From assembly GCF_030684315.1 (NCBI RefSeq), contig NC_081391.1:13865342-13929341 (forward strand): 64,000 bases of DNA, given 5' to 3'. The notes beneath the pieces are model-generated. The model did not search any database. It saw nothing but the letters and a program-made list of their open reading frames with translations, and was not told where the DNA came from. This DNA is from Stegostoma tigrinum (Eukaryota). Within the stretch, counting starts at the first letter, position 1, and the number at the start of each line of letters is the position of its first letter. The translations under genes and the position numbers were made by a program. Positions 10,991-53,060 of the stretch are shown here, piece by piece.

Positions 10991-11116
10991 AAAGTTACAA
11001 AAAACAGGAACACTCTGTTGCATAGAATTAGAGTGAATGACTCGTTTCTCACGGAAACAGACCCTTCGGTCCTACCTGTCCATGCTGACCAGATTTCCCA
11101 ACCTGACATAGTCCCA

Positions 11117-11308
11117 AGATAATAAAATGTGAGGCTGGATGAACACAGCAGGCCAAGCAGCATCTCAGGAGCACAAAATCAGAGACGAAGGGTCTAGGCC
11201 CGAAACGTCAGCTTTTGTGCTCCTGAGATGCTGCTTGACCTGCTGTGTTCATCCAGCCTCACATGTTATTATCTTGGAATTCTCCAGCATCTGCAGTTCC
11301 CATTATCA
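11117..11308. mobile_element. Short fold-back Penelope-derived insertion with 14-bp TSD
   Basis: ~60-bp inverted arms around a damaged hammerhead core (GACGAAGGGTCTAGGCCCGAAACGTC); flanked by CTGACAtAGTCCCA (11103-11116) and CTGACAtTGTCCCA (11309-11322). Confidence 0.85.
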
Positions 11309-11982
11309 CTGACATTGTCCCACTTGTCTGCCTTTGGCCCATATCCTTCTAAACCATTCCTTTCCATGCAAATCTCCAAATGTCATTTAAATGTTGTAAT
11401 TCTAACTACCTCCACCACTGTCTCTGACAGCTCGTTCTAACAATGCACACCACCTTCTGTATGAAAATGTTGCCCCTCATGTCCCCATCAAATCTTACCC
11501 CTCTCCCCTCAAACCGATGCCCTCTAATTTTGGACCCCACCTGACCCTATCACAGCATGCTTTTTATATACAGTCAATCTTGAGTGTGCCAATGGCAAGG
11601 CTACATTTAGTGCTCAGCAACTGTTACACTTCAGGAGATGGTGATGAGCTGCTTATTGCAGTCCACCTGGTGTCGGAGAGACCGGAATGATGCTGCTGCT
11701 GTTGCTGAGGAGGGGCTTCTGGGATCTTCACTCACAAACACTGATATTATTCCAAGTCAGGATGGTGATGGATTTACTTGGAGCTGCTTCAGTGTCACTG
11801 GGGCGGCATTGAGCTGGAAAATTGCAAACTACTCCAGCATTATTCCCAACTTCAGTCTTATCGATGGTGAACAGACTCTGGAAAGTCTGAAGTAGAGTTA
11901 TTCACAACAGAATTCCCAGACTCTGACTTGGTCTCAAAGCCATGAGCACATGAATTAGGATTGACCTCTGCCCATGGTTTCT

Positions 11983-13395
11983 TAGAAAATAGAACCTAGA
12001 ACAGTGCAGCACAGTTCACGCCCTTCAGCCCACGATGTTGTTTCGAACTTTTATCCTAAACCCAAGGACGATCTCACCTCCACTACCTTATATCCATCTG
12101 CTTATCTAATAGCCGCTTAAAATCCCCTAACGAGGCCGACTCCACTGCACTCTCCGGCAATGCATTCCACGCCCCAGCCACTCTCTGAGTAAAGAACCTA
12201 CCTCTGACATCCACCCTATATCTACCTCCACTCACTTCAAAACTATGCCCCCTCATAATAGCTAACTCCATCCTAGGAAAAAGTCTCTGGCTGTCATATC
12301 TGCCTATACTTATGATCATTTTGTACACCTCTATCAAGTCACCTCTCATCCTTTGTTCTGAAGAGAAAAGCACTCGTTCTCTCAACCTTTCTTCGTAAGA
12401 CCTTCCCTCCATTCCAAGCAACATCCTGGTAAATCTCCTCTGCACCTTTTCTAACACTTCCACATCTTTCCTGGAATGAGGTGACCAGAACTGGACACAA
12501 TACTCCAGATGTGGCCGAACCAGGCTTTTGTATAGCTGGAGCATAACTTCACAGCTCTTGAAATCAATCCCTCTATGAATGAAAGCTAACACACCACATG
12601 CCTTCTTGACAACTCTATCCACCTGACTGGCAGCTTTCAGGGAACTGTGGACATGAACCCCGAGATCCATCTGCTCCTCCACACTGCCAAGAATCTTTCC
12701 GTTAACCCTGTATTCTGCTTTAAAATTTGTCCTTCCAAAAGGAATCACTTCACGCTTTTCAGGGTTAAACTCTGTCTGCCACTTCTTAGCCCCGCTCGGC
12801 ATCCTATCAATGTCCTTTTGTAACCTGGAACAGCCGTCCACACTATCCACAAGTCAAATCACCTTCGTATCTTCCAAAAACTTACTAATCCGCCATTCCA
12901 CTCCTACATCCAAATCATTTACCAAAATCGTAAATAGAAGAGGACCCTGAACAGACCCTTGAGGTACACCACTCGTAACTGAGCGCCATGTTGAATATTT
13001 TCAGTCAACTGTCACCCATGTCTTCTATGGGTCAGCCAATTCTGAATCCAATCTGTCTCATTTCCCCCGTCACATGCCTCCTGACTTTCTGCATGAGCCT
13101 GCCATGGGGAACCTTATCAAACGCCTTACTTCAATCCATGTATCCCACATTCACTGATCTACCTTCATCCACACGTTTGGTCATCCCTTCAAAGAATTCA
13201 ATCAGATTTGTGAGGCATGATGTACGCCTCACAAATCCACACTGGCCATCACAAATCATACTGTGCCTATCCAAGTGATCATTAATTCTGTTTCTTACAG
13301 CCCTTCCCATTAATTTGCCAACCACTGACATAAGACTAGCTGGCCTGTAATTTCCAGGGTTACCCCATTCCCTTTTTTGAACACATGAATAATAT
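11983..13395 (-). mobile_element. CR1 LINE, 5'-truncated, decayed
   Basis: Minus-strand ORFs PGNYRPASLMS, SCLTNLIEFFE, LVRPHLEYCVQFWSPH; TAGAA-repeat tail at ~11983-12000. Confidence 0.92.
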
Positions 13396-14448: not shown

Positions 14449-17400
14449 ATGGCCTCCCAGATCAGTCAGAACTATCACCAGGATTGTGAAGCTGCTGTCA
14501 ACAAGCAGGTTAATGTGGAGCTCACTGCCTCCTATCTCTATCAGTCTTTGGTGAGTTTTGTCTTGATGGAGTTGAAATTAAATCTATTCTGCAAAAATGA
14601 GCTGATCCTCTTGTTTCTAATTAACTTCATAGTCTTGTAGATTTGAGGAGTTTAAGTTTGCACCTTGAAAAATCATTTTGGGATAAATGTAATGCCCTTT
14701 GGTGACAATGGATTTTGATATTGATGTGCAGTATCTAATTCACCAGCTGGGATTGAGTGATAGATGGAGGGCAAATTGTTCTGTCAATTATTTTACAATT
14801 TACTGCCAGGTCTCTGCCTGGTGGTAACTGTCGTTTTCCTCCCCAGAATTGACCAAACTTTACTAAAATTAGATGTAATGGTGTTGGGAGTTGTAGGCAC
14901 CCCTTGGCTAGTCATCCTGTAACATTTTAATTTACCTTGATCACACTTAATTTGTGCTCTGATCCTAAATACACATGCCAGTTTCCATTCTGTGATGGAG
15001 AATGATGGCAGTGACTGGCTTCTCTGAGCATATGCACTTGTAACTTGCATTGAGGAGGCCTCAGATGTGGACTAGTTGGCTTTCTGCATTCTCAGTTCAT
15101 GAATGGACTGTTAGTGGCCAGGAAGTCACTTGTTGTCCATTCCTCCAATAGATCAATACCCTCCTGTGAGTGCATGCACAGGGTGTCTGGAATAACCTGA
15201 GATCTTCACTTCACCAAAAAAGGTGAAGAATTGGAGTTTCAAATTCCCACGGTATGGGAAATAGTGCCTTTCTCCAGGGAGCACTGTGCCTATGGCCTCT
15301 CAAAATGGCAGGCTATAATGGTTTGTAAATGTTGAAGCAGCTTTTGAAGGCTGCTAGATACCTGGTAGATAGTGGACACTGGGAGTGCATTCACTCACTC
15401 CCTTCAATGAGGTGGGCTGCTCTGTCCTGCATAGTGTCTACTTTGTGCATGTTGCAGCTCCACTTCTTGGGAAAAAGGGAGAATATTCATCCCTCCATGG
15501 GGCTTATGTCTGAGAAGCATTCTCTTCCCACTCTGAGGATGAAATCCCTGTACCCTTCCCTTTAGCAGGTGGGAACAGCTATCACCAATAAGCCTGTTGG
15601 GTCTTAACTGTTAGTGGTGTCCCATATCAATTGGGCAGCATGTGCCCAAACAACCTACTATTGTATATCTGTGAGATGCAGCTACCCGAGAAAAGCCAGA
15701 GAAATTTACATGACTGTTTTTTGACAAAAGAAACTTCTCAGCCTGATCAGTTGGAACTAGATAACCTGCTCTAACAAGGTGTAGAGCTGGATGAACACAG
15801 CAGGCCAAGCACCATCAGGGGGAGCAGGAAGGCTGATGTTTTGGGCCTGGACCCTTGAGAAATGGGGAGGGGAAGGGGTCCCTGAAATAGGAAGGGGTGG
15901 GGAGGTGAATGGATGAGGGATAAAGAAACAGGTGGTGAGGAGACTCCAGTCTGAGGTAAGGATGGAGCCAATCAAGTCAAGTGAGTTGAGTAGGCCTGTC
16001 CGTGGGGATGGGATTTGAGGTGGCGGGGGTCGGCGGGAGGTGGGGTGGTGTGGGGAAGTAGGTGGGAGGAAGGACGGACCAGTCGGGGAGGTGGGAACTA
16101 GCTGAGCTGTGATTGGGGGAAGGGAGATCTTTCAGCTTAAGTCCTCACTGATACCATTGGGCTGCAGGGTTCCCAAGCAGAATACAAGGTGCTGTTCCTG
16201 CAACCTTTGGGTGGCATTGGAGGCCCAGAATGAACATCAACTGTCCCCTCCTGCCCCTCTGAAGGGGAAGTAGTTTGTGACTGGGAGGTGCAGCTGCTGG
16301 TCACGAGCCCAGCATAGGCACTCCACAAAGTGGTGTCAAGCCTCTGCTCGGATTTCCTGATGTAGAGGAGGCCACATTAGGAGCAGTGGATACAGCATAC
16401 CTAACTGCAGGTGTGTAGGTCCACTTCATCTTGATGTGGAAGGTCTTGGGGCCTGGGATGAGGGGAGGTGTAGCACAATCTGTGTGGCAGGAAAAAAGCC
16501 CTGGCTAGTGGAATGTACAAGGGAATCAGTGGTCTCTCCAGAAGGCAGCTAAGGTTGGAGAGGTAAAACATGTCTTTGTCAGATTGTAGATTGTATAAGT
16601 GCCAGAGGATGATGCACTGGGTCCTGGCATTGAGGTGGTACTGAAGGATGAGAGGATTCTGTTTTGGTTGTGTGAGGGATAAGATGCAAGACCGGTTGTG
16701 TTTTTCTTCCACTAAAGGGAAGTTACGCTCCCTCGGAAAACGAGGACATCTGGGATGCCCAGGAGTAGAATGCCTCCCCTCGGGGCTGGAGGTGAAGGAA
16801 TTGGATTAGGGGATGGCGTTTTCCTTCCACAGGAAGGTGGGTAAGGTGTATTCTAGGTAGCTGTAGGAGTCAGTAGGTTTGAAATATATCAAAGATTGAT
16901 AGACAAACTTAAGGTTGAGGTAGAAGGCTCTAATGAATTAGAGGAACCGTTCAAGCTCCTTTGTGGGATGTAATGGAGGAAGATGTGGAGTTTATGGCCC
17001 ATCTCCCTGTAGAAGGATTGTTCCACAAATCCTAACAGAAGCAGGCACAGCCTGGGCCCATGCACGTGCCTATGGCCACCCCCTTCCTCTGTAGGAGGTG
17101 GGAGGAATTGAAGGAGAAGTTAGGGGTGAGGATGAGTTGGCTAGTGGACAAGGTTGTTGGTGAATGGGGACCAGTCAGACCTGCAGGATGAGAGAAGCAG
17201 AGGGCCTTCGGCTATCTCCATGGGGAATGGATGAGGTTGGAGGCTGTGGGTGGGAGGTCATCTCCAGTGAAGTTGTAAATGGACTAGGAGATGGTTTGGT
17301 GGTCAGGGGTGGAGTCATGATGAAGGGCGGGGTGGTAGGAGGTATCGGCTGCTCTTCCACACAAGTATATGTGGCACTCCAGCTCCTGGCATTTCCTTAA

Positions 17401-20610: not shown

Positions 20611-23600
20611 ATGAGTTCCCAGATCAGTCAGAACTATCACCAGGATTGTGAAGCTGCTGTCAAAAGGCAGATTAATGTGGAGCTCACTGCCTCCGATCTC
20701 AATCACTCTTTGGTGAGTGCTGTCCCTGTGGGGTTAAAACTTGATCTATGTAGTTGAAGTAAATGTTTTCTCTTGAATTTAATTAACTGGACCCTCTCTC
20801 TTTGTAGATTGAGTTTTGTAGTCCTTTCCTAAATATTAATTCAGGATAAGGGCAATGTTACTGTACCAATGGGGTTTGATAATGATGTACTCTGAAGCTG
20901 GGTCCCAGTTGGCCTTCAGAGATATGTGGAGGATGAAGTGTCCCTGGAGAAATTTGCCAGTTTGGTGTTTGAATTGGCAGTAGATGTCATTCCCTCTAAG
21001 ATTACCAAATGTTGGTAGGGTTACTTCAGAAAGGTATTATATTGATCATACTGTGGGACTAGAATCACCCACTGGCTAGTTACCCTCTTTCTGACAGGTT
21101 TAAGTATCTGATTTTATATTTGCTTGCTTTTGTGGTGATACTTAAATATCAATTCTGATATTGACAATGATAATTCCCTATTGCAGTCTGCTGTGGCTAA
21201 TCTGAGCAAACCTACTTGAGGTTAGGCTGAGTGTGACTGGTATCTGACTTTTTAAAGTAGATCTCAGCTGAGGCCTGCTTGGCATTTTGCACTCCCATCA
21301 TGAGATGGGTGTGGCCTATCCCTGAACCTGTAGAAAGTTGATCTGCTTTAGTGTGTGGCGTGTTGAAGCTTCTGCAAACCATGTTTGCCTCCTGCCCCCT
21401 CACCCACACCCTGCATCCCCTCTAGCTGCTGGAGTCTGAGATTCATGGTCCAGTCTCTATGCCATCCTGATAGGGAACAAACTGTCCCCTTTAGCCAGGT
21501 GGCAGTGAACCTGTAACTTTCCAATGGGTAGAATGTTTCAGACAGTAGGAACAGCAGATGCTGGAGAATCTGAGATAACAAGGTGTAGAGCTGAATGAAC
21601 ACAGCAGGCCAAGCAGCATCAGAGGAGCAGGAAGGCTGATGTCTTGGGGCATGACCCTTCTGAAGGTGGGCCTAGGCCCAAAACAGCAGCCTTCCTGCTC
21701 CTCTGCTTGGCCTGATGTTTTCATCCAGCTCTACATCATCGTATCTCAAGGGGTAGAATGTGTTTGGAAGGTGTGTGTTGAAGTAACCTTGGTGAGTGCT
21801 GCAGGGGACCTGGTAGATAATGGACCCTGAAAGGAGGTGGTGAATGCAGTCCCCATGAAGTGGGCTGCTCTGTCCTGGATGGTGTCTGCATCTTGAATGT
21901 TGCAGCTCCACTTCCACAGACACATGGAGAATCTTCTTCACTCTCAGCTTTTGTCTGTTAGAAAGAAGATGTCTCATGACAGATGGATGAAGCCCGTATA
22001 AACTCCATTTGGGAGGTGGGTACAGCTTTCATTGGTGAGCCAGTTGACGGGTTTTAATTACTGACCAGGGTCCCATTTCCCTTGGGGAACACGTGTGCCA
22101 ATTATAAAATCCTTCCTATTCTCTCCTGCCACAGCTTGTCCCTACCCCGTTAAACAGACAAGAAATTTTGTTTGACTGCTTCTACATGAAGACAATAACT
22201 TCCCACCAGGCTTCCTCGACAACAAAACTCTTAGCTCCTGTTTCAAATATCAGAAGAATAGCCCTTCATAAACCTCAAGGCATTGGATTGTGAATATCTC
22301 GGTTCGGAAGTGAGTCACATATGGGTGGACAAACAACAGAACGGTGCCAGCTGGGATAAGCCAAACTTTGTTGTCCAGCTTTGTGTTAACTAGTGACGTT
22401 AGATCAGCCATTATCTGTAGATACAGGTCACATTGGTTCTTTCTCTCCAATATTTGACCTTCCCTCAGTTTGATTCAATTTGTTTTGTTCATGTGACCCT
22501 TGTTCTCCCCCTTCTGGATGTGAGTGCACTAATTTTAGTGTGCTATAAACTATAACTGCAACAATCCAGAGGCAGTTACTGGGTAGGTTTTCCTTTGCAC
22601 TATCTTGTTGTCGCTTTCTCTCATTCGCCTCTATTATATCTTGTAGTCATAAAATATACCGTACATTCAATCTCCCTGGTTTTGAGGCCACAGAAACCTT
22701 GCTTCCTCCTGGTTATATTGTTACAGCAGTGTCTAACATGTATTTCCATGCCAGCCCCAAAGGAGCAATAGTGTTACAGCTCCCCTACTCAAGTATAGCC
22801 TGCACTCCAGCTCCTGGTGCTTGTTTCAGCTGTTTGTTTGGCACTAATATTGTCCAATTCGAATGAAGGTTAGTGAGTGCAAACATGGCTGGATACAAGA
22901 AGAGCTATAATGCTGTGCCAGGCAGCCTGAGCAATTTACTGTTTGTTTTAAGCCAAACTTTTGCCAGTTTCCAACAGGAAATTGGGATTGTTCTGTTTGA
23001 TCCCAGTTGAAGGATCTGCTGGACAGCTGGACATCATTGGGTTCTCAAACATGTTCACATACCAGGCAGTTAGTTTGCTGCAGAAGGCTGAACTAGAATT
23101 TGGAGTCAGTGCTGTGTTTAATGGGCTTTAACATGTTATCTCCCTTCCAGATGTCCTACTTTGACCGGGATGATGTGGCCCTCCCCCACTTCTCCAGGTT
23201 CTTCAAAGATCAGTCCCGGGAGAAGCAGGAACATGCAGAGAAGCTGCTGAAATTCCAGAATCAGCGTGGAGGCCGAGTCCTCCTCCAGGATGTGAAGGTT
23301 GGAGTTGGGTGGGAGGGTTGCAGCTGTGGAGGAGAGAATGGCAGCTCTTGTGGTGCTGCGTCCTGTTGGGATGTGAAAATCCTATTTTGGCATGGCTTCC
23401 CTGTTTGATTTCTTTTGAAGGCAGTTTCTAAACAAGCCCTATTGTCCACCATGTCTATGCTGCCCACAAACATCAAACTAGATTAACACAATTTCCTGCA
23501 CTTAGTCCACAGCCGACTATCTTCTGGCATGAAGAAGTTGTTGAGATTAGCCTTCAATGTTGCTGGAGTAACTGCCTCCACTGACCCCACAGGTAATGCA

Positions 23601-27550: not shown

Positions 27551-30500
27551 ATGGCCTCCCAGATCAGTCAGAACTATCACCAGGATTGTGAAGCTGCTGT
27601 CAACAAGCAGATTAATGTGGAGCTCACTGCCTCCTATCTCTATCAGTCATTGGTGAGTGCTGTCCCTGTGGGGTTGGAGTTACTTCTGTTATGAAGTGAA
27701 CTGTTTTTTTTTAAAACAAACTAGATTAATACTCTTGTATAATAAAATGTGAGGCTGGATGAACACAGCAGGCCAAGCAGCATCTCAGGAGCACACGTTT
27801 AGCTTTTGTGCTCCTGAGATGCTGCTTGGCCTGCTGTGTTCATCCAGCCTCACATTTTATTATCTTGGAATTCTCCAGCATCTGCAGTTCCCATTATCTT
27901 TAACACTCTTGTAGACTTGTTTGTTTTTTTTTGTATCTCTCTTAGCTATTTCTTGATTCAGCGTAAATGTGGTGACAATGGGATATGATACTGATATGCA
28001 GCAACTGAGGCCCCAGTTGTCTCAATGATATATGGAGGGTGAAGCATCTTGTGATTTATCTTAAAATTCCTTTTTGGGCTGTGATTGCCTATAACTGGCT
28101 GTGGCTCTCCATAATTTTCTAAACTACTGTCAAGCTTTGATCCAGATAACCATTGGCTAACTACCTTTTTAAATCTGCCTTGATGTATCTGCTTTAGTTT
28201 TGTGCATGTAAATAAACAAACATACTGGTTTTGGTATTTACAATAAGGTGTTGTAGTAATTTGACAAATCAGATTTTTTTAAGCTGAACTGAAGTCCTTG
28301 AGGTAAGACAAGCTGCTCCCTGCTTAAGTAGGTCTCCGATATTATTTTGGCTTTCTGTGCTCTATATCATGAAGTGGGTTTGATCCATCACTTCACAACC
28401 TATAGAAAGTTGACTTGTTATAGGTGCCTGCCCCCCCCGACCCCCCCGCCCCCAAAAGGGGGCTGCTGGAACATGCTGAGGCTATTGACCCAGAGGTGAA
28501 GAAATAAATGTTCTTCCTTTACCATTTAACCAGATAAAGAAACAAACTGGCTCCTCCCACCATGTGGTGGTGCCCCTGTGCCCTTCCAAGGAGTAGAATG
28601 TGTTCAGAAGGTGTTGAGGTCCCCTTGGTGAGTGCTGCAGGGGACCTGGTAGATAATGGACCCTGAAAGGAGGTGGTGAATGCAGTCCCCACGAAGTGGG
28701 CTGCTCTGTCCTGGATGGTGTCTGCTTCTTGCACGTTGCAGCTCCACTTTTCTCCAGACACATGGAGAATATTCATCACTCTCTGGGCTTGTGCCTATTG
28801 GAAGGAAGTCCTATCTAGGGACATGAGGATAAAGTCCCTATAACTACCTTTTTGGGAGGTGGGAATAGCTTTAACTAGTGAACCAATTGTTGGGTTTTAG
28901 TCACTGACCACTGTCCCAACTCAATAGGGAATCTTGTGTGCTGATAATAAAATCCCCACTATTCTTCACCTTCTACAACTTAACTACCCAATTAAACCAC
29001 TTTTTTAAACTTTTAGTTTGTATTTGAGGATTAAACTAACTTCTCACCAGGATTCTACCAAAGAACAACTTCTTCTTTTGATGTCAATAGACTGTTCCTA
29101 ATCAGCAGTAACTTGTTGGATTGTGAATCTCAGTTGAAAAGTGAGTGAAATGAGTGGGGAAAACAATAGTTTAGCCTCTTGGAATAAGCTAAATTGAGCT
29201 CTCCAGCTTTGAACAAGTCAATAATCTATAGGTCACACAGTCCTGCAGATACCATTAGGTCTCCTGAACATTTGATCTTGTTTCAGTTGTGAATTTTAAT
29301 GCTTTGCTTTGCAAGCTTCTGGCAACCTGAGTGCATGGCATAAACAAATGTGATAAACTATTGCTGCAACAAGCCAAAGGCTGTCACTGGGCAGGCTCTC
29401 CTTTAGCACCAAGATTCTCCTAATCGCCCTCATTCTCCTGCATACTGCAAACAGCATCTCTTGTAGAGCTGCTTTATGTAAAAAAAAATACAGTACATCT
29501 GATCCAATTGGTTGCAGAAGACCTGTACCTACCAGCTATATTAATGTCCAGCATCTGCATGTTACTCTAGCACCAGGGGAGACATGTAATGACTGGAAGT
29601 TGCCTGACCCTGTGCACATCCTGCATTCCAGCTCCTGGCACTTGTTTAAACCCTATTCAGTTACCACTTCCATCCATTTCTGGAGGCTAGATGGTAGAAA
29701 TGTGCTTTCAGCTTTTCTCTCCAGGCTGTGCCAGACACCCCCCCCCCCCCAAACAATTCAGCAGGGTTTACAAACCAAAACACTGAATTTGCATCTTACG
29801 TGGAAGAAGCTGGGGTTGTTTGGTTTCCTCCAATTAAAGGAGCTGCTGGCTAATTTTGCAACACCATTAGTGAACATTGTAAGGTGTCAACAATTTTCAG
29901 CTGATTGAATCATTAGTTTGCTTTAGACTAAACCAGTCCTCCAGTTCTGAGCATGAGAAATGGGGTCAATGATGTGTTTAATGGGCTTTAACATGTTATC
30001 TCCCTTCTAGATGTCCTACTTTGACCGGGATGATGTTGCCCTCACCCATGTCTCCCGGTTCTTCAAAGATCAGTCCCAGGAGAAGCAGGAACATGCAGAG
30101 AAGCTGCTGAAATTCCAGAATCAGCGTGGAGGCAGAGTCCTCCTCCAGGATGTGAAGGTTGGAGTTTGGGAGGGGGGCATGGTGTGGTGTGCAGGAATGG
30201 TAGCTCATGGTGTTTTCTGTTAGTAGTGACAAGATTTTAATGTGGTAAAGGATGTGAAGGTTGGAGTTGGAGAAGGCAGGCAGTGGGGAGGAGATGTGAG
30301 AAATGGCTGCTTATGGTGTGGTTTCATGTCCTGAAAGAAAGTGAAAACTGTTTTGTTTGGCTCCCCTCCTTTTGATGAAAAGGAAAGAAATCCTAGAAAC
30401 ACGCCTCTTGGCTCCCCTCCACCTGCTGCTTCTCCACCCCCCCCACCCCCGCCCCCCCACACCACCCCACCCCATGCTGACCCGATAAACACCAAACCAC

Positions 30501-32413
30501 ATTAATCCCATTTACTGCACTTGGTCTACAGCCCCCATGGCATTGGTAGTTGTCTAGAAGCTGCTTAAATATTGCAGCAGGAGATGCCTCCCCCACTGCC
30601 CCACCCCCCCCATATTATTTTTCCACTACCCTCTGGGCAAAGGATTCCTCTAACCTGCTGACTCCTCACATCAGTGCCCTCTGGTCTTAATGTCTCTTTC
30701 TCCCCACCCCCTCATAGCAGACACTCCCCATCTACTATCAAGACTCCACACTAATCAAATGCCATCACATAAACATCTCAACTGACTTCACTCTGAGGAT
30801 TGGAGTGAGAAATCTAATCTCTCCTTTTAATGGATTTTTCAGTCTTGGGGCAACATCCTGGTGACCCTTCCAGTGCCATTGTGGCTCTGGTCACCACACA
30901 GTATTCCACCTTTGCATGGCCAATGCTGCAAAGTTTGTGACAAGACTGGAGTCCCTGTACTGCGCCCCAAGAAATGGGGAAGGGCATTGTGGAAGCCAAC
31001 TTCCCCACCCTGTCTACACTTATGGATCCTTGAAATATCTCTAGTCTTGTTCTCTTGGTTCCTTTTATTGTCAACATATTGCTGTCCCTTCAATGAATTA
31101 AATAGTAGTGATGCTTTTGATCATTCAGGTCAGTCCGAGATGAAGCCATAAGCACAAGTGGGACTTCAACCTGGGCCTATGCTCCAAACCTAGGGACAGT
31201 ACCACTGCTTAACGAGCCCTGGGATTAAGTTGTGAATATCTTCCTTGGGATGCCATCAGATGGGCACTGACAATTCTGTGCAAACATAACTCTTATCCCC
31301 ACTATGACCTGGTTGTGAATTGACTCTCCTTTCGGAAGAAGCAAATAGGGCTAGGTGAAAGCAATTCCTTAAATAACTGATCTGTTCTTCCTAAGGACTT
31401 CAGGGATGGCGGTGGTTAGCACAACTGCATCAGTGCTTGGGGCACAAGCTTAATTCTGGAGTTGACATGTTCACCACATCTCTACATAGGCTTCCTCCCA
31501 CAGTCCAAAGATGTGCAGGGTAGGATAGGGCATGAAAAATGCAGGATTACATGGCTGGGGCTAGGACCAGGTTGGATGCTCTTCAGATGGTCATGAGTGG
31601 GCAGAATGGCCTGATGCATGCTGCAGGGATGTTGTTTCTGAGGCTTACCTGTCCTTCTTTCCATCCTCAGAAGCCAGAGAGGGATGAGTGGGCAACAGTC
31701 TGCAGGCGCTGCAGGTTGCCCTGGATCTGGAGAAGAATGTGAACCAGAGTTTGCTGGATCTACACCAACTCTCCACGGCCCAGACTGACCCTCATGTAAG
31801 CTTCACCACTTCATTCTCATCACTGCGAGACCCTCAGGGTAACACTTCATTGGTTGGTCTGTGTGGATTGGAAATTCACAGGTGTGCACTGATCACTTTG
31901 GGTCCATGCTGCTGAGCAGTTGTTACATGGTGATCAGTAATGAAGTGAAATGGGAGTTTGGAAGGCAATCCATTGGGAGTGATGAAGTGATATTGGCCAT
32001 TGAATTCCCATTCTCACTTGGGAGCATTACAGTGGAATGATCATTGTCCATCACCATCCAACTCAGCTCCACTTCACAAGCAGCAAGATGGAGCAGCTGA
32101 AATCCTATTGTCATCACCGACACAGATTTTCCAGGTGTTAGCTAAATTTTCAGGGCTGTCTGGAACTAGTATGGTAAAGCCTGTTTTTTTCAGTGGGAAT
32201 TCTGAAATTGTCTTGGATAGTGTTAATGCACCCAGTTGTCATATTCCTCTGTTGCAGCTGTGTGACTTCCTGGAGAATCACTATTTGGATGAGGAGGTGG
32301 AGATCATCAAGCAACTCGGGGACTACATCACCAACCTGAAGCGCCTGGGAGCCCCTGAGAATGGGATGGGAGAATACCTGTTTGACAGGCTCTCCCTGGA
32401 GGACAGCAGTTAG
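27551..32413 (+). pseudogene. Ferritin copy E, frameshifted; exons 27551-27652, 30011-30157, 31671-31795, 32258-32413
   Basis: Exon 3 is 125 nt (TGGGCAAC vs TGGGGTAAC), shifting frame to TGA at 31740-31742. Everything else, including the promoter, is intact, so a sequencing indel cannot be excluded. Confidence 0.7.
27740..27899. mobile_element. Short fold-back Penelope-derived insertion with 14-bp TSD, intron 1 of copy E
   Basis: Perfect ~57-bp inverted arms with a short spacer; flanked by TTAATACTCTTGTA (27726-27739) and TTAACACTCTTGTA (27900-27913). Confidence 0.85.
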
Positions 32414-33179
32414 TGTGGCCTGGAGTACTGTCTGCTTGGTCTGAATGCATTCCCCACTTCACCCTGGACAACCTGTCTCCTTCCAAGGAGAAGGGACTTT
32501 TGTAGCAAAGAATGTAATGGCTGTACCAGCTAAATGGAAATGAATAAAATGATGTGTTGATCTTGCTTATTGTCCATCATTCAGAGCTCTGAATACTTTG
32601 GGTGATAGCTCTTGCTTGAAGCCAATTCGTTTTCTGTCATTTGATTGGTCCAATTTCTAATTGGATTAGGCAACCCTTCACAGAATAGCTCACTATCCCC
32701 ACATTAGAATGTAACTCGATGGAGTGTTTTTTTTGGTTAGTCCTGTGGAAATTGAAGGTGTTTCTCCTCCAAATAGGATAAGGTTGGAATTTGTCAATTG
32801 TGGCATTGGCTTTCTTCTAGAGGACAATTAGTGCACTTCTGGAGATGGTGGGTTCAACTGTAGCTCAAAGCAATTGTCTTCCTCTGGTGACAGGAAGTTC
32901 CCACACCTTCTAAATAGACTTCTCTACCCAGCCTGATAGAATTTGGGATAGTGGTGTTCAATTGCACATTTCCCTTAATCTCTTCCCCGCCTCAGCCATC
33001 CTGCGTACTCAATTATTGCCTGAATGATGACAGCAACACAAAGTGAAGACAGCCCTTTATCTACTGACCCAGCTGCCTGATCACCAAGGTCTAAAGGAAG
33101 AGGCCCAGCAGGCTCTGATTTCAATCCAGCTGGCGGAAGCAGCAGAGGTGTGAAACAATCTCAACTGCCTGGTATATCT

Positions 33180-33364
33180 GAGATAATGGGAACTGCAGAT
33201 GCTGGAGATTCCAAGATAATAAAATGTGAGGCTGGATGAACACAGCAGGCCAAGCAGCATCTCAGGAGCACAGGCTCTGATGAAGGGTCTAGGCCCGAAA
33301 CGTCAGCTTTTGTGCTCCTGAGATGCTGCTTGGCCTGCTGTGTTCATCCAGCCTCACATTTTAT
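33180..33364. mobile_element. Short fold-back Penelope-derived insertion with perfect 14-bp TSD
   Basis: Perfect inverted arms around a hammerhead core; TGCCTGGTATATCT at 33166-33179 and 33365-33378. Confidence 0.88.
33272..33309 (+). ncRNA. Minimal type I hammerhead ribozyme motif (Penelope-type)
   Basis: AGGCT-CTGATGA-A-GGGT(CTAG)GCCC-GAAA-CGTC-AGCTT: stem I AGGCU/AGCUU, core CUGAUGA, stem II GGGU/GCCC, GAAA, palindromic ACGU helix III, GUC cleavage triplet at 33302-33304. Confidence 0.7.
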
Positions 33365-35664
33365 TGCCTGGTATATCTCTTCTTTTTTTTTTTCCCCCCA
33401 TTGGGCCCTACCCTGACCAATAAACACTATATTCTCAGTATTGTTACTTTTGGTTTCACCATCCCAAACTGTGGCTGGAGCTCTTTCTCTTCCGCTTCTC
33501 CCCACTTCGCTCACCCCGCCCTCCCCCCACCCGACCTTTTCTATCCACGTGCCCCACCAGCCTAAACATTCACCACAGCCCCTTTCCCTGGGAGTCAGCT
33601 CAAGACGTTCACCTGAACTGTACTGGATTATAATGTAGGGCCTCATTGCTGCTTACAGCAGGATAACAGGGACCTGGGAAGAACACAGCAATGCACTTGG
33701 TTAAATGCTGCTGTTTGATTGGCTCTTGTTGCTAATGCCAGCATTGAGCACACTAAGCTGCTCCCTTGGTTCCTCTGAGCTTTCCCCCATGGTGAACATT
33801 ACTCCTGATGCAGGTTGATTGGGTGAAATCACATTGAAGGAGCAAAGTGGCTCGGAGAGGAGACATGGAGATGCTGACTTTCCTTTACGGCTGCTTCTTT
33901 TATCTTTCAAGGTGTCAGAGATCATGGGTTCGTGAGGGTGCGATCTGAGACATCCTGAGGATTGTTCCAGGGAGTTTTGTAGCGGGTGTACACTGCAGCC
34001 TTCATCGAGGTTGGCGGGGGGGGTGCTGCAGAGTCAAAAGGCACTCAACATATTTGTTCCAACCTCATAAAGCAATTTATTTTTGGTGAAAATAAGTCTA
34101 GGCTACAGTAACCCTCAAGTGCAGGAAGGGACCATTAGGCCCATTAAATCTGCATAGACCTTCTGAACAGCATCCTCCTTAGACCCAACCCCTTTGCCTT
34201 AACTCCACATTCCCCATGGTTATTCGACCAAGCCTGCATGCCCCTGCTCACTATCGACAATCTGCAAATCGTCGGGCTGTGTGAGGAAACTCAAGCACCT
34301 GGAGGAAATCCACGCAGTCCATCGCCCAGGGGTAGAATCGAACCTGGGTCCCTGGCACTGAGCCGCCAAAACATTCTAAAGTACCAAAGGAAAGGAATAC
34401 ACTGCGGCAAACTACGCCATGGGAATAGACTCTGCAGCGCAGCCCGAACTTGCAGACCAGGTTTTCATAAACTGTGTAGTGCCATTTGCCTACGTTTGGC
34501 CCATCTTTCTCTAAACCGTTCCTTTCCATGTAAATCTCCAAATGTCACTTAAATGTTGTAATTCTATCCACCTCTACCACTTCCTCTGGCAGCTCATTCC
34601 ATACACGCAACACCCTCTGTGTGACAATGTTGTCACTCACGCCCCTTTTAAATCTTGCCCCTCTCCCCTCAAACCGGTGCCCTCTAGTTTTGGAACCCCC
34701 CTACCCTGTCCCAGCATGCTTTTTATATACAGTCAATCTTGAGTGTGCCAATGGCAAGGCTACATTTAGTGCTCAGCAACTGTTACACTCCAGGAGGTGG
34801 TGATGAGCTGCTTATTACAGTCCACCTGGTGTCGGAGAGACCGGAATGATGCTGCTGCTGCTGCTGTTGCTGAGGAGGGGCTCCTGGGATTTTCATTCAC
34901 AAACAGGGATAGTGTTCCAAGTCAGGATGGTGACAGAGTTACATGGAGCTGCTTGAGTGTCGTTGGTGCTGCCTCCAGCGAGAACATTGTAAACTAATTC
35001 CAGCACTACTCCCAACTTCAGCCTTATTGAGGGTGGGCAGGTTTTGGAAACTCAGGAGTTGAGTACTTCCTGACAGAATTCCCAGCATCTGAATTCCCAG
35101 TTTCTGAGCTGTACCATCGAGAGAACGCAATGTAAACTGAACCAGAAATTCTTCACTTGGAAACATGCTGGGGTGAATCACTAGTTCTACTTCAAACAAC
35201 GAAAACGAAACTGGGAGACAGAAATGTTCAACGTGCGATACATTTCTAGCAGCAACTGAGGCATAGAGGCCTGAGGCCTACTGTGTAGAAGAGGCACTCA
35301 GCACATTTAGCGTTTTGCTTTTCAAACTGGGCTTCAAGGTCAAGGTCAGGGAGATCACATCAGATGCAGAATGGATCCACAAAGTACATCAGTTGCCTGT
35401 TTTAGATGATCCAAAAGCACATTATTTCTGTTGCTGCACAGAAATAGGAAAATGTTCAGATCAACCAAATCGAGCCATTTTTCAAAGAGCTCCAACACCA
35501 ACGTTCAAAAATTATTACGACTAATCCCTCAGAATAGCAATCCGACAGAATTCTGCAAATCTGTGATGAATGTGTCTTAACGCACAACCTCAGATAGAAA
35601 AGTGAAGTTTTAGAGTATATTTTATTCTCATTTTCAGGGAGATGTCCTTCCAGAATTTGCACTT

Positions 35665-35860
35665 GTGCGGGAGGTCAAAGGTCATTTCAGCAATTTCATC
35701 ATCAACCAGTTGTCAATTCTGATTGGGTTTTTGACCCAATTCCCATCCTGCGCTGATTGGATGTGGCAGCTGATCAATTGATTAACAAGAGTGTTTGGCC
35801 ATCACTGATGATCTCATTTCCTGCTTCAGAAAATGAGTGTTGGCTCCTGGAGTATAAATA
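35665..35860 (+). promoter_or_regulatory. Conserved ferritin promoter, copy F
   Basis: Perfect DR1 at 35672-35684; TATAAA at 35853-35858. Confidence 0.72.
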
Positions 35861-35946
35861 GAGTCCCACAGGAGGCATGTTTACTGTTGCTCTTAACTTT
35901 GTCATTTTTCTGGGGAGGAAAATAAAGCAAGTGTTTCCTTTATAAG

Positions 35947-38900
35947 ATGGCCTCCCAGATCAGTCAGAACTATCACCAGGATTGTGAAGCTGCTGTCAAC
36001 AAGCAGATTAATGTGGAGCTCACTGCCTCCTATCTCTATCAGTCTTTGGTGAGTGGAGTCTCTGTTGGGTGAAACATACTTCTGTTCTGTTGAAGTAAAC
36101 TCTTCCCCTTGGATGTAATTAAGTTGTCTATCTTATAGACTGAGTTTTGTGGCTCCTACCCCTTTCTCAATGCAGGATGAGTGTGATGTTATTATAACAA
36201 TAGTTTGGTGCCTAATGTTACTGTAACTTGGGTCCCAGTTGGTTGTCAGTGAGATGTGGAGTGTTCTTGTAGTTACTTGCCTGTCCCATGATGGTGCTGT
36301 GACTGGTGGTAATTATCGCTTCCTGTGACTGTTTGAAACTTGAGGGAACTAATTTAAAAATGAATTGGGACTCACCATTGTGGGAATGGAAGCACCATCA
36401 GCTAGTCATTGCTTTTCTTTTCCCTCTTGTATCCTTGTTTCTATTTGAATCTTGTGGGGATCTGAAGTAAACCTGCCAATTGATACTGAGAATCTTGGTT
36501 TCCTATTGCAATCAGCTTAGAATAGGCTTGTTCTTGCCCTGCAGAGCGGGGCTGAGAGGTGGCAAATGGAGTTTAATGCAGACAAGTGTGAGCTGATGCA
36601 CTGTGTTAGGAGTAACCGGAAGGCAAAGTACAGGGCTAATGGTAAGATTCTTGGTCGTGTAGATGAGCATAGAGATCTGTGTCGATAGGTAGACACGGAT
36701 TGTTGAAAGTTGCCACCCAGGTTGACAGGGCAATTAAGGCAGTGTTTTGTCTTTTATTAAGAGGATTGAGTTCTGGAACCAAGAGGTTATGGTGAAGCTA
36801 TCCAAAAACTCTGGTGCATACAGTTCTGGTCACTGCATTATAAGGATGTGAAGCTTTGGAAAGGGTGTAGAGGAGATCTGCTAGGATGTTGCCTGGTATG
36901 GAAGGAACATCTTATGAGGAAAGGCTGAGGGACTTGAGGCTCTCTTCATTAGAGAGAAGAAGGTTGAGAGGTGACTTAATTGAAACATATAAAATAATCA
37001 GAGAGGGCTAGTTCGGGTGGATAGGGAGAGCCTTTTTCCTAGATGGTGATGGTGAGCATGAGGTGGGGTAGCTTTAAATTGAGGGCTGATAAATATAGGA
37101 CAGATGTCAGGGGTAGTTTCTTTACTCAGTAAGGGAATGCAATGCTTTGCCTGTGACAATAGTAGATTTGCCCACTTTAGGTACACTTAAGTCATCATTG
37201 GATAAGCAAATGGGCGTACATGGAATAGTGTAGGTTAGATGGGCTTGAGATCAGTATGACAAGTCGGCACAACATCAAGGGCTGAAGGGCCTGCACTTGG
37301 CTGTTATGTTCTATGCTCAGATTAAACTGGGTGAGGTTGTGACTCTTATCTGATTCAGCAGATCTCCATTTGAGATCTACCTTGCTTTTCTTCATACTCA
37401 TGAGGTGGGTGTGGGCTGTCTGTATGTCAAGTGTTGGAGCTTTTCAAAGGCACAGCACTGCCATGGGGCTGAGAATGTACTGACCCAGTGACTCTGGTAA
37501 AAAGTTTGTGCCCGTTGTATTTGGCCTGATTCTAAACTAACTGGACCCTCTTTCCCCAGGTGGGGTGCTTGTGCCCTTCCAAGGGGTAGAAGGTGTTTAC
37601 GTAACCTTGGTGTTTGTTGCAGGGTGCTCTCTGGGCTTGTCCCTGTCAGCAGGAAGTCCCCCTCCTGATGAGGATCAAGCCCCTGTCAGCCCCAGTTTGG
37701 GAGGGGGAACAGCTTTCATTGAGCCAGCAGTTGGGTTTTAATCACTGACCCATTGTCCCAACACACCTTGTAAGCATGTGCCAGGAATGAAATCCTTACT
37801 ATTCTACATCTTCTAACTGCACATTTAAATCGCAAAGATAAATTGTGCTTGTGTTTGCATTTGAGAATTGAAGCAACTTTTTTCAGCAGGATTTGTAAGA
37901 ATGTGCTTGTTACTGGCTGCTTCCAATAGCAGACCTGCTAAACCTCAATACATTGAATTGTGAACATCCTGGTTTAGAAATCTACAGGACTTTGCCTGTT
38001 GGATTAAGTCAACAGTGGTTTTTCCAGGTTAATGAGGGATCTTGTCTGGAGAGTAGTTGATCTGCAGATCACTGTCATATTTGTCATGTGATCAGTTTGT
38101 TTTGTCAGTCTTTGTTTCATGTGTAATGGTACAAGTTGCTAGCAGTCTGAGTCAGTGCAGCTGTTTTAGATGCAACAATAAACTGTTGCAGTAACAACCC
38201 AAAGGCTGTCCTTAGGCAGGCTTTCCTTGGCAGATTCTTGGAGCTAACATCCTTCATTCATCTCCTCCTCCCCCCCCCCCCCCAGCCACCCCAATACTGC
38301 AGTTCTTGTCAAACTAATACATACAGTGCATCCAATTGCATTGATCCTGACTCAGCAGAAAATGTGCTTCTTCCAAGCTGTTAATTGCAGTGTCTAGGAT
38401 CTGTTTTCTGGTCTTTGCCAAAGCAGCAATACAGTGCCCTGCAGCTGTTCTATTGGTGTACATCCTGCACTCCAGCCCCTGGCATTTCTTGAAACCCTAT
38501 TCAATCAAAGATTTATCCCATTTCTGGTGGAGGTTAATCAGTAAAAACATCAATTCACACTTATTCTCACCAAATGCTGTGCCAGACCCTGGAGTTTCAA
38601 ACCAAAATAAAACACATGGTATTTACAGCTTACTGGAGGAAGCTGGGATTGTTTTGATTTTTCCAATTCAACAGCAACTGTTCAAAACTGGGTTCTGAAT
38701 TGTTAATGCATCAGGTACTTAACAGCTTATTGTCAGTTTGATTTTGAGAATGCTCAACTAGCCCTGTAGTTCTGAACTGAAATTGGCCCATGACTTGTTA
38801 ATGGACTTTACCTTGTTCTCCCTTCCAGATGTCCTACTTTGACCGGGACGATGTTGCCCTTCCCCATTTTTCCCAGTTCTTCAAACATCAGTCTCAGGAG

Positions 38901-41097: not shown

Positions 41098-43621
41098 TGT
41101 GGCCTGGAGTACTGTCTGCTTGTCTGAATGCATTCCCCACTTCACCCTGGCCAATCTGTCTCTCTCCAGGGAGAAAGGACTTTGAGCAAAGAATGTAATG
41201 GCTGTACCAGCCGAATGGAAATGAATAAAATGATCTCTTGTTCTCAGTTACTGTGCATCATTTTGAGACCACTGATACCTCTTTGGTCAAGCAAGCTTTC
41301 TTGCCTCACTTCACCACTGCTTTTGCCCAAACCCCTGTGGACAGACTCCAGGCCTATGGGAGCCAGTTGGGGTTCAAATGGGGCCTGTGACCGACCCTGA
41401 TGACAACCATCAACTAGTGGCCCTGCTGACCAGTTCACTTTGTCACTGAAGTCTGCTGCTCCTCCCAGGGGACCTTGGGTTTTCTAAACTTTCTTGGTTC
41501 ACTGCATAGATTTGTTTTTCCCCCAGAAGGAATCCAAAATTCCTTCAAGTGGCTTCCTCAGTTTGTTGCTTTCTTTCCTCCGCCCAGGGCTCAGGCCCTC
41601 CCCATAACTGGAAGTCCACCAGCCCTGAGCTGGGGGAAATTCAGCCCAAACATTCTGAACAGTCACATTCCAGAGAATCATCTCCAGATTCTCTGGGGCT
41701 ACTTGATTGATAGTGGATGCTCTTTATACCATAAATACAAGGATTGGTGACCTGGGGCTTGGATGATTGCCCATGGTTCAAAATACTCACATTTGGTTTA
41801 TGCTTGCAGCTACAACTGGCCTCTGACTGTTGAAGGGTTTGTACAAAAAGCTTCTACCTTGGTTCTTGGAACCTTTCCATGGGCTGATGAAATTTTTTTT
41901 GACCCAGTGAGGGAGCAGGGATTTCTGGGGAAGATGGGGGCTGTCTCCTTCAGTCAAGATGCCTGGACATGCTGATTTTCCTGTACAGCTGTTTCCTTGA
42001 TCATTCAAGGTGTCTGATCATGGGTTAGGGAGGGGGTGATCAGAGACAGCCCGGAGATTATCTTGAGTTTTGGCACAAGTGCACACTGTAGCCTTAGGAA
42101 GAGTGTGGGTCATTAAGGTACTGAATAGATTTGTTCCATCACAAAAATCCTTGTTGTTTGGCCCAGTCTCTATCCTTGGTGATAGAATCCCTGCTCTCTG
42201 GCAAGAGGCCATTTGACCCAGGTAGCATCAACCTTCTGACCAGAATCCTGCTCAGTCCCACCCCAGTCCTTTAACCCTGTGTCTTCCCCATGGCTAATCC
42301 AGCTTGCCCCTTGTCAATATCACCAACTTAGCATTCCCTATCCACTTGACCAGCAAATAGTTCAGATGGTGGGTGGGAAACCAAACAGACACTGTAAATG
42401 TACAAACTCCCCAGGGTGCCCTAAGGCTGTAATAAATCCCATGTCGCTGTGAGGTAAGTGTTCGCTACTGAGACACTGTCTGACCCGAAAGTACCGAACA
42501 AAGGAATATGCTGTTGCATACTGTCAGAGTCCTACAGCAGAGATACAGGTTGTTTGGCTCAAACCGTCCAGGTCGAGCAGTGTTCCAAATCTGAACTAGT
42601 TGTGTTTGCCCCATATCCCTCAACCAGTCCTTTCCCTGGAAATCACCAAATGTCTTTTAACAACTGCAATTGCACCTACTTCTCGTGCTTTATGTAGCCA
42701 CTCATTCTTGACATAAACCATTTTCTGTGGGGCAAAGCTGTTCTTCAGCTTCCCTCCCTCTCCACCCCCCTTCCCCCCCCCCCAAACACCACATGCCTGT
42801 GTGTGAAAACATTACCCCTACCACCCCTAGTTTTGGACTCCACGACCCTGTCCCAGCATGCTTACTGTATGCAGTCAATCGTGAGTCTGCCAAGGGCAAG
42901 GCCACATTTAGTGCTCAGCAAGTGTTACACTTCAGGAGGTGGTGATGAGCTGGTCATTACAGTCCCCCTGGTGTAGGAGAGACCGGAATGATAATGCTGC
43001 CGAGGAAGGGCTTCTGGGATTTTCATTCGCAAACAGGAATATTTTCCCAAGTCAGGATGGTGACAGACTTAAATGGAGCTCCATTGCGTGTTGTTGGTGC
43101 TGCCTCCAGCCAGAACATTGAAAACTGTTCCAGCATTACTCACTCCGAACTTCAGTCTTATTGATGGTGGACCGGCTTTGGAAAGTTAGAAGTTGTGTAA
43201 TCACAACAGAATTCCCTGCCTCTGACTTCCCAATTTTTGAGTTGTTCACTCTACAGAATGCAATGAAAACTGTAACAGATACTGTCACCTTGGAAACATG
43301 CTGGCGTTAAGCGCTGATTCAACTTCAACAATGAAAAACCAAACATGGAGACAGAAATGTTCAACGTGCGATACGTTTCTAGCAGCACCTGAGACACAGA
43401 ACCCTGCGGCCTACTGTGTATAAGAGGCACTCAGCACATTTAGCATCTTGCTTTTCAAACTGGGCTTCATGCGACCCTAAGTCACGCTGATCACAGCAGA
43501 TTCAGAATGGATCTACAAAGGACATCGGTTGCCTGTATCAGACGATCCAAAAGCACGTTATTCTGTTGCTGCATAGAAATAGGAAAATGTTCATATCAAC
43601 CAAATCAGGGCATTTTACAAA

Positions 43622-45055
43622 GATGAGGATTGCAAATGTGGTTCCCCTGTGCAAGAAGGGGAGTAGAGACAACCCTGGTAATTGTAGACCAGTCAGCCTT
43701 ACCTCAGTTGTTGGGAAAGTGTTGAAAAAGGTTATAAGGGATAGGATTTATAATTATCTAGAAAAGAATAAATTGGTTAGGGATAGTCAGCACGGTTTTG
43801 TGAAGGGAAGGTCGTGCCTCACAAACCTTATTGAGTTCTTTCAGAAGGTGAGCAAACAGGTATTTGAGAGTAAACCGGTTGATGTGGTGCATATGGATTT
43901 CAGCAAGTCGTTCGATTAGGTTCGCCACAGTAGGCTATTGTACAAAATGCGGAGGAATGGAATTGTGGGAGATATAGCAGTTTGGATCGGAAATTGGCTT
44001 GCTGAAAGAAGACAGAGGGTGGTAGTTGATGGGAAATGTTCATCCTGGAGACCAGTTACTAGTGGTGTACTGCAAGGGTCGGTGTTGGGTCCACTGCTGT
44101 TTGTCATTTTTATAAATGACCTGGATGAGTTTGTAGAAGGATGGGTTAGTAAATTTGCAGACGACACTAAGGTCAGTGGAGTTGTGGACAGTGACGAAGG
44201 ATGCTGTAGGTCGCAGAGAGACATAGATAAGCTGCAGAGCTGGGCTGAGAAGTGGCAAATGGAGTTTAATGCAGACAGGTGTGAGGTGATGCACTTTTGT
44301 AGGAGTAACTGGAAGGCAAAGTACAGGGCTAATGGTAAGATTCTTGGTGGTGTAGATGAGCAGAGAGATCTCGGTGTCCATGTACACAGATCCTTGAAAG
44401 TTGCCACCCAGGTTGACAGGGTGGTTGAGAAGGCATACAATGTTTTGGCTTTTATTAATAGAGGGATTGAGTTCCAGAACCAAGAGGTTATGGCGAAGCT
44501 GTACAAAACTCTGGTTAGGCCGCACTTGGAGTATTGTGTACAGTTCTGGTCACCCCATTATAAGAAGGATGTAGAAGCTTTGGAAAGGGTGCAGAGGAGA
44601 TTTACTAGGATGTTGCCTGGTATGGAGGGAAGGTCTTAAGAGGAAATGCTGAGGGACTTGAGGCTGTTTTCATTCGAGAGAAGAAGGCTGAGAGGTGACT
44701 TAATTGAAACATATGAAATAATTAGAGGGTTGGATAAGGAGAGCCTTTTTCCTAGGATGGTGACAGCGAGCACGAGGGGGCATTGCTTTAAATTGAGGTG
44801 TGAACGATATAGGACAGATTTCAGAGGTAGTTTCTCTACTCAGAGTAGTGAGGGAATGGAACGCTTTGCCTGCAACGGTCGTAGATTCGCCAACTTTAGG
44901 TACATTTGAGTCGTCATTGGACGAGCATCTGGACGTACATGGAATAGTGTAGGTTAGATGGGCTTCATATCGGTATGACTGGTCGGCACAACATCGAGGG
45001 CCGAAGGGCCTGTACTGTGCTGTAATGTTCTATGTTTTATGTTCTATATTCTATG
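43622..45055 (+). mobile_element. CR1 LINE, 5'-truncated; duplicated copy of the 2885-4361 insertion
   Basis: RT motifs [22 protein letters not shown] and SKFADDTK; same flanks; (TTCTAT)n-like tail. Confidence 0.93.
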
Positions 45056-51866: not shown

Positions 51867-53060
51867 TAGAAAATAGAACCTAGAACAGTACAGCACAGTT
51901 CAGGCCCTTCAGCCCACGATGATGTGCCGAACGTTTATCCTAAACCCAAGGCCTGTCTCACCTCCACTACTTTATGCTATCATCCATATGCTTATCTAAT
52001 AGCCGCTTAAATGCCCCTAACGAGGCCGACTCCACTACACTCTCCGGAAATGCAATCCATGCCCCGGCCACTCTCTGAGTAAAGAACCTACCTCTGACAT
52101 CTCCTCTGTATCTACCTCCACTCACTTCAAAACTATGCCCCCTCATAATAGCTAACTCCATCTTAGGAAAAAGTCTCTGGCTGTCTAATCTGCCTATACT
52201 TATGATCATTTTGTACACCTCTATCAAGTCACCTCTCATCCTTTGTTCTGAAGAGAAAAGCCCTCGTTCTCTCAACCTTTCCTCGTAAGACCTTCCCTCC
52301 ATTCCAAGCAACATCCTGGTAAATCTCCTCTGCACCTTTTCTAACGCTTCCACATCTTTGCTGGAATGAGGTGACCAGAACTGGACACAATACTCCAGAT
52401 GTGGCCGAACCAGGCTTTTGTCTAGCAGGAGCATAACTTCACAGCTCTTGAACTCAATCCCTCTATGAATGAAAGCTAACACACCACATGCCTTCTTAAC
52501 AACTCTATCCACCTGGCTGGCAGCTTTCAGGGAACTGTGGACATGAACCCTGAGATCCATCTGCTCCTCCACACTGCCAAGAATCTTTCCATTAACCCTG
52601 TATTCTGCATTCAAATTTGTCCTTCCAAAATGAATCATTTACCAAAATCATAAATAGAAGAGGACCCCGAACAGACCCTTGAGGTACACCACTCATAACT
52701 GAGCACCATGTTGAATATTTTCAGTCAACTGTCACCCATGTCTTCCATGGGTCAGCCAATTCTGAATCCAATCTGCCTCATTTCCCCCGTCGCATGCCTC
52801 CTGACTTTCTGCCCGAGCCTGCCATGGGCAACCTGATCAAACGCCTTACTTCAATCCATGTATCCCACATTCACTGATCTACCTTCATTCACATGTTTGG
52901 TCATCACTTCAAAGAATTCAATCAGATTTGTGAGGCATGATGTGATCATTAATTCTGTTTCTTAGAGTCCTTCCCATTAATTTGCCAACCACTGGCATAA
53001 GACTAGCTGGCCTGTAATTTCCAGGGTTACCCCGATTCCCTTTTTTGAACACATGAATAA
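51867..53060 (-). mobile_element. CR1 LINE; duplicated copy of the 11983-13395 insertion with internal deletions
   Basis: ORF 51967-52638 nearly identical to 12083-12850; same flanks. Confidence 0.92.

Follow-up and report, generated by a model that had tools for sequence, protein, structure and literature searches.

The window (the whole 64,000-nt stretch analysed, positions 1-64000, + strand) contains a tandem array of about eight ferritin genes together with LINE remnants, which we take to be CR1-like from their resemblance to such elements. Rfam matched no iron-responsive element (IRE) at gathering score in the window. Exon 2 of the ferritins reads EKxEH at the site where H-type ferritin has EExEH. 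Their sequences suggest that the ferritins are L-like, ferroxidase-poor, IRE-less paralogues. A short insertion, 33180-33364, is located ca. 630 nt past the AATAAA (32543-32548) of the upstream ferritin gene, whose stop codon is at 32411-32413; the hammerhead ribozyme (HHR) motif that the insertion contains lies on the same strand as this gene.

The insertion is 185 bp long and is enclosed by identical 14-bp direct repeats (TGCCTGGTATATCT, 33166-33179 and 33365-33378, no mismatches), just as the original prediction had described its target-site duplication (TSD). Inside, two inverted arms of 55 nt each (33218-33272 and 33311-33365), spaced by 38 nt, are 100% complementary, which agrees with the perfect arms of ca. 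55 bp seen earlier; the outermost arm pair borrows the first TSD base (33365). The arm hairpin has a fold z-score of −19, and none of 200 shuffled sequences was equally stable. The native arm plus tail of the family showed no significant fold (z 0.2 to 1.0). Beyond the left arm there is a 38-nt unpaired extension (33180-33217) that is absent from the original prediction. The loop sequence had been quoted correctly. It consists of CTGATGA (33277-33283), A33284, helix II (33285-33296, 4-5 bp), GAAA (33297-33300) and CGTC up to 33304. No part of a minimal hammerhead core is missing; C17 is at 33304, so that the predicted cut falls after that position, where it had been placed before. Two pLTRs, the ends of a Penelope-like element (PLE), make up the insertion; both are 5'-truncated, they meet head-to-head, and the 38-nt extension is the tail of one of them. 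The features are collected in Table 1.

Table 1. Features of the 33180-33364 insertion, its relatives and its surroundings in the window (positions of the window)
Feature	Position	Strand	Description	Source of the concept
Left TSD	33166..33179	+	14 bp	
PLE tail	33180..33217	−	Terminal 38 nt of the family, on the left arm only; 1 nt deleted relative to sister copies B and C	PMC3846280, PMC11167929 (excerpts)
Left inverted arm	33218..33272	−	5'-truncated pLTR copy, ends 6 nt short of the predicted cleavage site	
Junction bases	33273..33274	.	Two bases, GG, unlike the left-arm continuation (per sister B) and unlike the native upstream pyrimidine tract	
Minimal type I hammerhead motif	33275..33309	+	Hammerhead of the pLTR, including palindromic ACGU (33300-03) and C17 (33304)	Definition: PMC4209133 (excerpt)
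Right inverted arm	33311..33364	+	pLTR in sense orientation, with the internal 3' end that lacks the tail	
Right TSD	33365..33378	+	14 bp	
Copy B	11103..11322	+	Sister fold-back, young subfamily; 14-bp TSD, one mismatch; right arm bears the tail; junction disrupts the CUGAUGA box	
Copy C	27726..27913	+	Sister fold-back within the first intron of a ferritin gene; 14-bp TSD, one mismatch; no hammerhead left; arm with the tail begins at the predicted cut or 4 nt ahead of it	
Copy D	15772..17355	−	Decayed 5'-truncated PLE; RT, linker and GIY-YIG portions spread over several frames; 3' region rich in pyrimidines	
Copy E	21522..21761	.	Older-subfamily fold-back; 15-bp TSD, one mismatch; junction falls within the hammerhead core	
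Copy F	about 54504-54640		Probable segmental duplicate of E	
Ferritin last exons	near 1018, 8871, 18866, 25188, 32258, 40942, 49520, 58161	+		
LINE reverse-transcriptase remnants	3334-4349, 12083-12853, 43491-44639, 51967-52638		Duplicated with the ferritin units	

BLAST of the insertion (copy A in what follows) against the window revealed five more family copies; an intact parent of the young subfamily was not found. Over the shared arm, B and C were 97-99% identical to A. Four of the copies (A, B, C and E) are independent fold-backs, and all four have TSDs of 14-15 bp and one arm that reaches the family 3' end, the other arm lacking the last 31-40 nt. The junction between the arms is different in each of the four, and in every case it falls on the hairpin, at about −30 to +7 nt relative to the cleavage site. 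The earlier term "mini-retroelement", understood as a replicating unit, finds no support in these differing junctions. Like A, copy B seems to have extended to the end of the pyrimidine tract, ca. 30 nt upstream of the cut, and the end of this tract may be a preferred stop point. Empty paralogues of copy E are present in the window; a paralogous empty site for A was not found within the window.

Copy D connects the terminal sequence to a coding element. Its terminus aligned with the right arm of the insertion with 70 identities, 11 mismatches and 4 gaps. D is not a fold-back, is the end of a decayed ORF and ends at the tail-less 3' position; no TSD was found for it. A phmmer search with one read-through frame of D yielded 37 protein matches, and seven of the nine relatives that were looked up were whale-shark predictions, which points to an elasmobranch host. 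When 12 of the 37 matches were analysed with Pfam, one, P0005, contained both a reverse transcriptase (RVT_1, E 2e-9) and a GIY-YIG domain (E 4e-5). In tblastn, RT and nuclease pieces of the matched proteins mapped onto D (9e-10). A direct Pfam scan of the three frames of D gave no families, and a word-based homologue search with one D frame retained none of 2826 candidates. A further match, P0022, to an oyster protein of repetitive sequence, was judged spurious and set aside. As far as sequence comparison goes, the terminal sequence is tied to PLEs by way of this older-subfamily copy, and the Penelope derivation stands, the same terminal sequence closing the decayed RT and GIY-YIG ORF at 15772-17355. 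In P0005 the linker is of the form CX4CxxC and the nuclease motif includes cysteines; the CX2-5CxxC linker motif is present in P0005 and P0006, and only in degenerate form in D. A CX2-5CxxC linker before the GIY-YIG domain and cysteines within the nuclease motif are Neptune-type features (PMC8557442; this and the other PMC and DOI sources are cited from excerpts of their text). The family looks Neptune-like.

A descriptor of the minimal hammerhead (min-HHR) matched once in the window, both strands considered, and did not match in 300 first-order Markov simulations of the window. Of the traits of PLE minimal hammerheads, the core boxes, the extra nucleotide 9/10.1, the G10.1-C11.1 pair and the palindromic 15.2-16.2 segment were present. 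An Rfam search returned nothing from a hammerhead family: over the whole window there were no matches at gathering level, and in 30000-36500 there were 13 E-value matches, all under their gathering scores and none to a hammerhead family. Native sequence upstream of 33275, as seen in the contig loose ends listed, is the pyrimidine tract, and therefore only two helix I pairs are native (U33276-A33305 and C33275-G33306). The other three, which bring helix I to five pairs, are supplied by A33272 and GG 33273-33274, that is, by the left arm and the junction.

The original picture of a hairpin capped by a self-cleaving motif fared poorly on several counts, the partly junction-made 5-bp helix I being one of them. 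In the predicted fold at 37 °C, the catalytic box pairs with CGUCAG with a probability of 0.95 (the inactive CUGAUG/CGUCAG register), compared with 0.006-0.046 for the helix I pairs (0.6-4.6%). The predicted energy of a double hammerhead is −71.7 kcal/mol, 11.7 kcal/mol worse than that of two inactive hairpins (−83.4), and the minimum free energy of the dimer is −98.6; these nearest-neighbour values leave out stabilisation by tertiary contacts and by protein, and protein can assist PLE HHRs (PMC11167929). The hammerhead core is thus predicted to be locked in an inactive rod, both as a monomer and as a dimer. According to the published excerpts, a single min-HHR did not cleave in vitro and dimers cleaved weakly (PMC4209133), an anole PLE HHR cut only with protein and no RNA-seq ends occurred at its cut site (PMC11167929), and eight of nine frog dimer retrozymes tested failed to cleave (10.64898/2026.07.22.740005). 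The full hammerhead core is kept in one of the six window copies, and the CpG before GAAA carries a G-to-A change in all five older arms (D, E and F). CpG decay has removed the core from the older copies, in line with neutral decay after insertion. In copy A the hammerhead is predicted to be misfolded and has no partner; most likely it does nothing and will decay.

The comparison with public contigs covered 4 of 13 listed runs. In two of the runs, 122,177 and 101,496 contigs were matched, nearly all of them on the insertion, numbers that do not represent a copy number; the family is very abundant, i.e. very high-copy, in public contigs. The contigs contained at least 542 distinct joints, together with 86 differences and 757 loose ends, of which 40 and 24, respectively, were listed. 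Among the 15 joints listed, nine lead from the left arm to 33303-33336, four lead from the left arm to 33275, and two are strand-changing joints at the tail end; also among those listed, the joint 33208 to 33275 recurs in 15 and 10 contigs. Strand-changing joints from 33180 to 33275 and from 33180 to 33215 were present in 45 and 51 X1 contigs and in 10 and 16 X2 contigs, respectively. The former (45 + 10 contigs) is compatible with a head-to-tail pLTR tandem elsewhere, which would be retrozyme-like and could dimerise in cis. Strand-changing tail-end joints are also compatible with tail-to-tail inversions elsewhere in the genome. Among the 32 contig pieces listed (163,710 more exist), none crosses the 33272-33275 junction and none spans the locus. 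Exact-pattern scans gave no matches in viral contigs and none in metagenome contigs.

Since neither the arms nor the TSD contain a mismatch, the insertion is young, which had been proposed from the start, and the contigs point to an empty homologous site. An X5 contig with a depth of 344.3 covers 32765-33178 and has 26 letters left over, and the depth of the bin 33392-33435 is 156.5, i.e. 344.3 × 20/44. From this depth arithmetic on one contig we infer that the contig resumes at about 33386-33411, which would make it an empty site. An X2 contig likewise ends at 33178, with 35 letters left. The X5 depth also declines with distance from the ferritin gene, an observation left out of the argument. 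The contigs stopping at 33178 differ from the window flank at 13 of 416 (X5) and 10 of 422 (X2) letters and may represent another haplotype, a sister taxon or a paralogue.

By the features tested, the sequence at 33180-33364 is a truncated insertion of an endonuclease-positive (EN+) PLE with a PLE min-HHR. It shares with the complex insertions of EN+ PLEs (PMC3846280, PMC8557442) the head-to-head inverted pLTR ends, the tail at one end (38 nt here), the TSD and a near-palindrome at the junction. It differs from them in that both pLTR copies are shorter than 100 nt and lack an ORF, and the TSDs of 14-15 bp in four of four copies here are longer than the 8-10 bp of the rotifer examples in these two sources. 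With the PLE minimal type I hammerheads of Cervera and De la Pena 2014 (PMC4209133), the motif has in common the CUGAUGA and GAAA boxes, the extra nucleotide between A9 and G10.1, the G10.1-C11.1 pair, the palindromic 15.2-16.2 segment and the lack of loop 3. Helix II is 4-5 bp here and 6-8 bp in those hammerheads; the 2-bp native helix I resembles that of the D. virilis variant, whereas helix I of the PLE minimal hammerhead is 4-5 bp. One supplement of that paper contained no shark or skate min-HHR example, and the excerpted text of PMC6155905 added nothing on sharks.

PAc (Poseidon of Anolis carolinensis; PMC11167929) also has a pLTR with an HHR, two 3' ends 30-40 nt apart, and use of both target strands. 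In contrast to PAc, the shark family appears Neptune-like (CX4CxxC linker in P0005, its best full relative), its targets show no particular AT richness, and no ORF was seen to begin in helix II. Animal non-LTR retrozymes (PMC7229834, 10.64898/2026.07.22.740005) are likewise short, non-coding, pLTR-related and equipped with a type I HHR, but they are head-to-tail tandems with at least two HHRs, whereas a single HHR resides in an inverted unit here. A retrozyme was rejected as a candidate on finding one intact HHR in the 64-kb window and no tandem at the locus. No description of this shark PLE family was found in the literature searched, the scope of which did not extend to subscription journals and Repbase/Dfam, and absence from print is not claimed.

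We conclude, with a probability of ca. 0.85, that the insertion at this locus is young, was dead on arrival and derives from an abundant, Neptune-like, endonuclease-positive elasmobranch PLE. Inverted head-to-head pLTRs with a one-sided tail of 30-40 bp and a TSD are a typical Penelope structure (PMC3846280, PMC8557442, PMC8969392). In a dual-priming scheme, the GIY-YIG endonuclease would nick the two target strands ca. 14 nt apart, giving rise to the TSD, and each nick would prime reverse transcription of sense pLTR RNA. The top-strand nick would prime at the outer start site, producing the arm with the 38-nt tail, and synthesis would stop after 93 nt; the bottom-strand nick would prime at the inner start site and produce the tail-less arm of 90 nt, which extends just past the hammerhead core. 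Joining of the two cDNA ends head-to-head with two extra bases would complete the fold-back. The two cDNAs overlap over 55 nt, so that the scheme would call for two RNAs or for strand displacement. Purified PLE protein nicks and extends both strands and uses two RT start sites spaced by the tail length, and HHR mutants do not affect insertion in vitro (PMC11167929). We consider dual priming a reasonably probable origin of the fold-back.

Under the same PLE identity, a fold-back could also stem from snap-back, in which the near-palindromic hammerhead hairpin primes its own copying, perhaps with an antisense strand as template; this route was proposed for rotifer PLEs (PMC3846280). The position of all four window junctions on this hairpin, close to the cleavage site, speaks for such a route, and the geometry of B and C is as it predicts, these two copies fitting snap-back as well as dual priming. 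Copy A, however, has its tail on the shorter arm, which does not reach the hammerhead, and the strand of that arm carries the loop in sense orientation, a geometry that snap-back of a single cDNA cannot yield. The strand with the tail-primed antisense arm continues into the loop as sense sequence, and priming at the inner site would give a cDNA without any tail that could be copied. With both-strand priming also shown in vitro (PMC11167929), we regard snap-back as an unlikely, if serious, competitor of dual priming. More doubtful still is the idea that the inversion breakpoints of the young shark family are set by the hammerhead, the template being cut in vivo within a two-RNA complex that primes both target strands. 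Hints in its favour are the −30 to +7 nt range of the window junctions, the start of the tail arm of C at the cut (or 4 nt before it), and the geometry of A, which excludes a simple snap-back, but a start at 33305 fits one of the nine arm-to-arm joints listed, and the excerpted anole study found no reads ending at the HHR cut (PMC11167929). A replicating non-autonomous fold-back, whose whole 185-nt hairpin would be transcribed and re-copied in trans by PLE protein, we hold to be very unlikely. One strand of any fold-back does end in the sense pLTR end or tail used by the RT, pLTR cis-sequences suffice for mobilisation in trans (PMC3846280), and some of the joints listed recur in 10-16 contigs; against this stand the four different junctions of the independent window fold-backs, the 542 or more joints, the missing 33272-33275 junction among the contig pieces listed, and the loss of the ribozyme in B and C.

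It is highly improbable that the ribozyme or hairpin is active or exapted and acts on read-through RNA of the upstream ferritin gene with the aid of the 5-bp helix I that the junction creates. The core is intact and has the same orientation as that gene, and the junction extends helix I into the 55-bp stem, but the insertion is outside the predicted ferritin mRNA, it is apparently missing from the homologous site, its core is sequestered in the predicted fold, and the excerpted reports of a lone min-HHR left uncleaved in vitro (PMC4209133) and of eight out of nine uncleaved dimer retrozymes (10.64898/2026.07.22.740005) point the same way. We give the least credence of all to a chance motif, a miRNA precursor, a MITE or a fold-back artefact of the assembly. 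The simulations described above argue against chance. The Rfam matches to miRNA families are weak (43-45 bits, with gathering scores of 82-100), and this candidate was rejected, as the matches reflect the perfect stem only. The left arm is not terminal, being preceded by the 38-nt tail, and the TSDs are 14-15 bp long. An artefact would agree with the locus being spanned by none of the contig pieces listed, but the inverted joints recur in independent runs. The link of the sequence to an RT ORF speaks against this group of readings as well.

As one of very many truncated PLE ends, the single locus matters little. The sources cited leave open whether PLE hammerheads are active in vivo and by what route inverted pLTRs arise, and a young family with many copies and clean 14-bp TSDs would lend itself to a purely computational test through the distribution of breakpoints and the geometry of the arms. 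If the breakpoints were indeed set by the hammerhead, the very many short fold-backs would constitute a genomic record of in vivo cleavage and dual priming.

Two observations concern the sister fold-backs. At the junction of copy B (11176-11190) there is a short inverted piece of the 5' edge of the hammerhead. Copy C would place a perfect 57-bp RNA stem in ferritin pre-mRNA.
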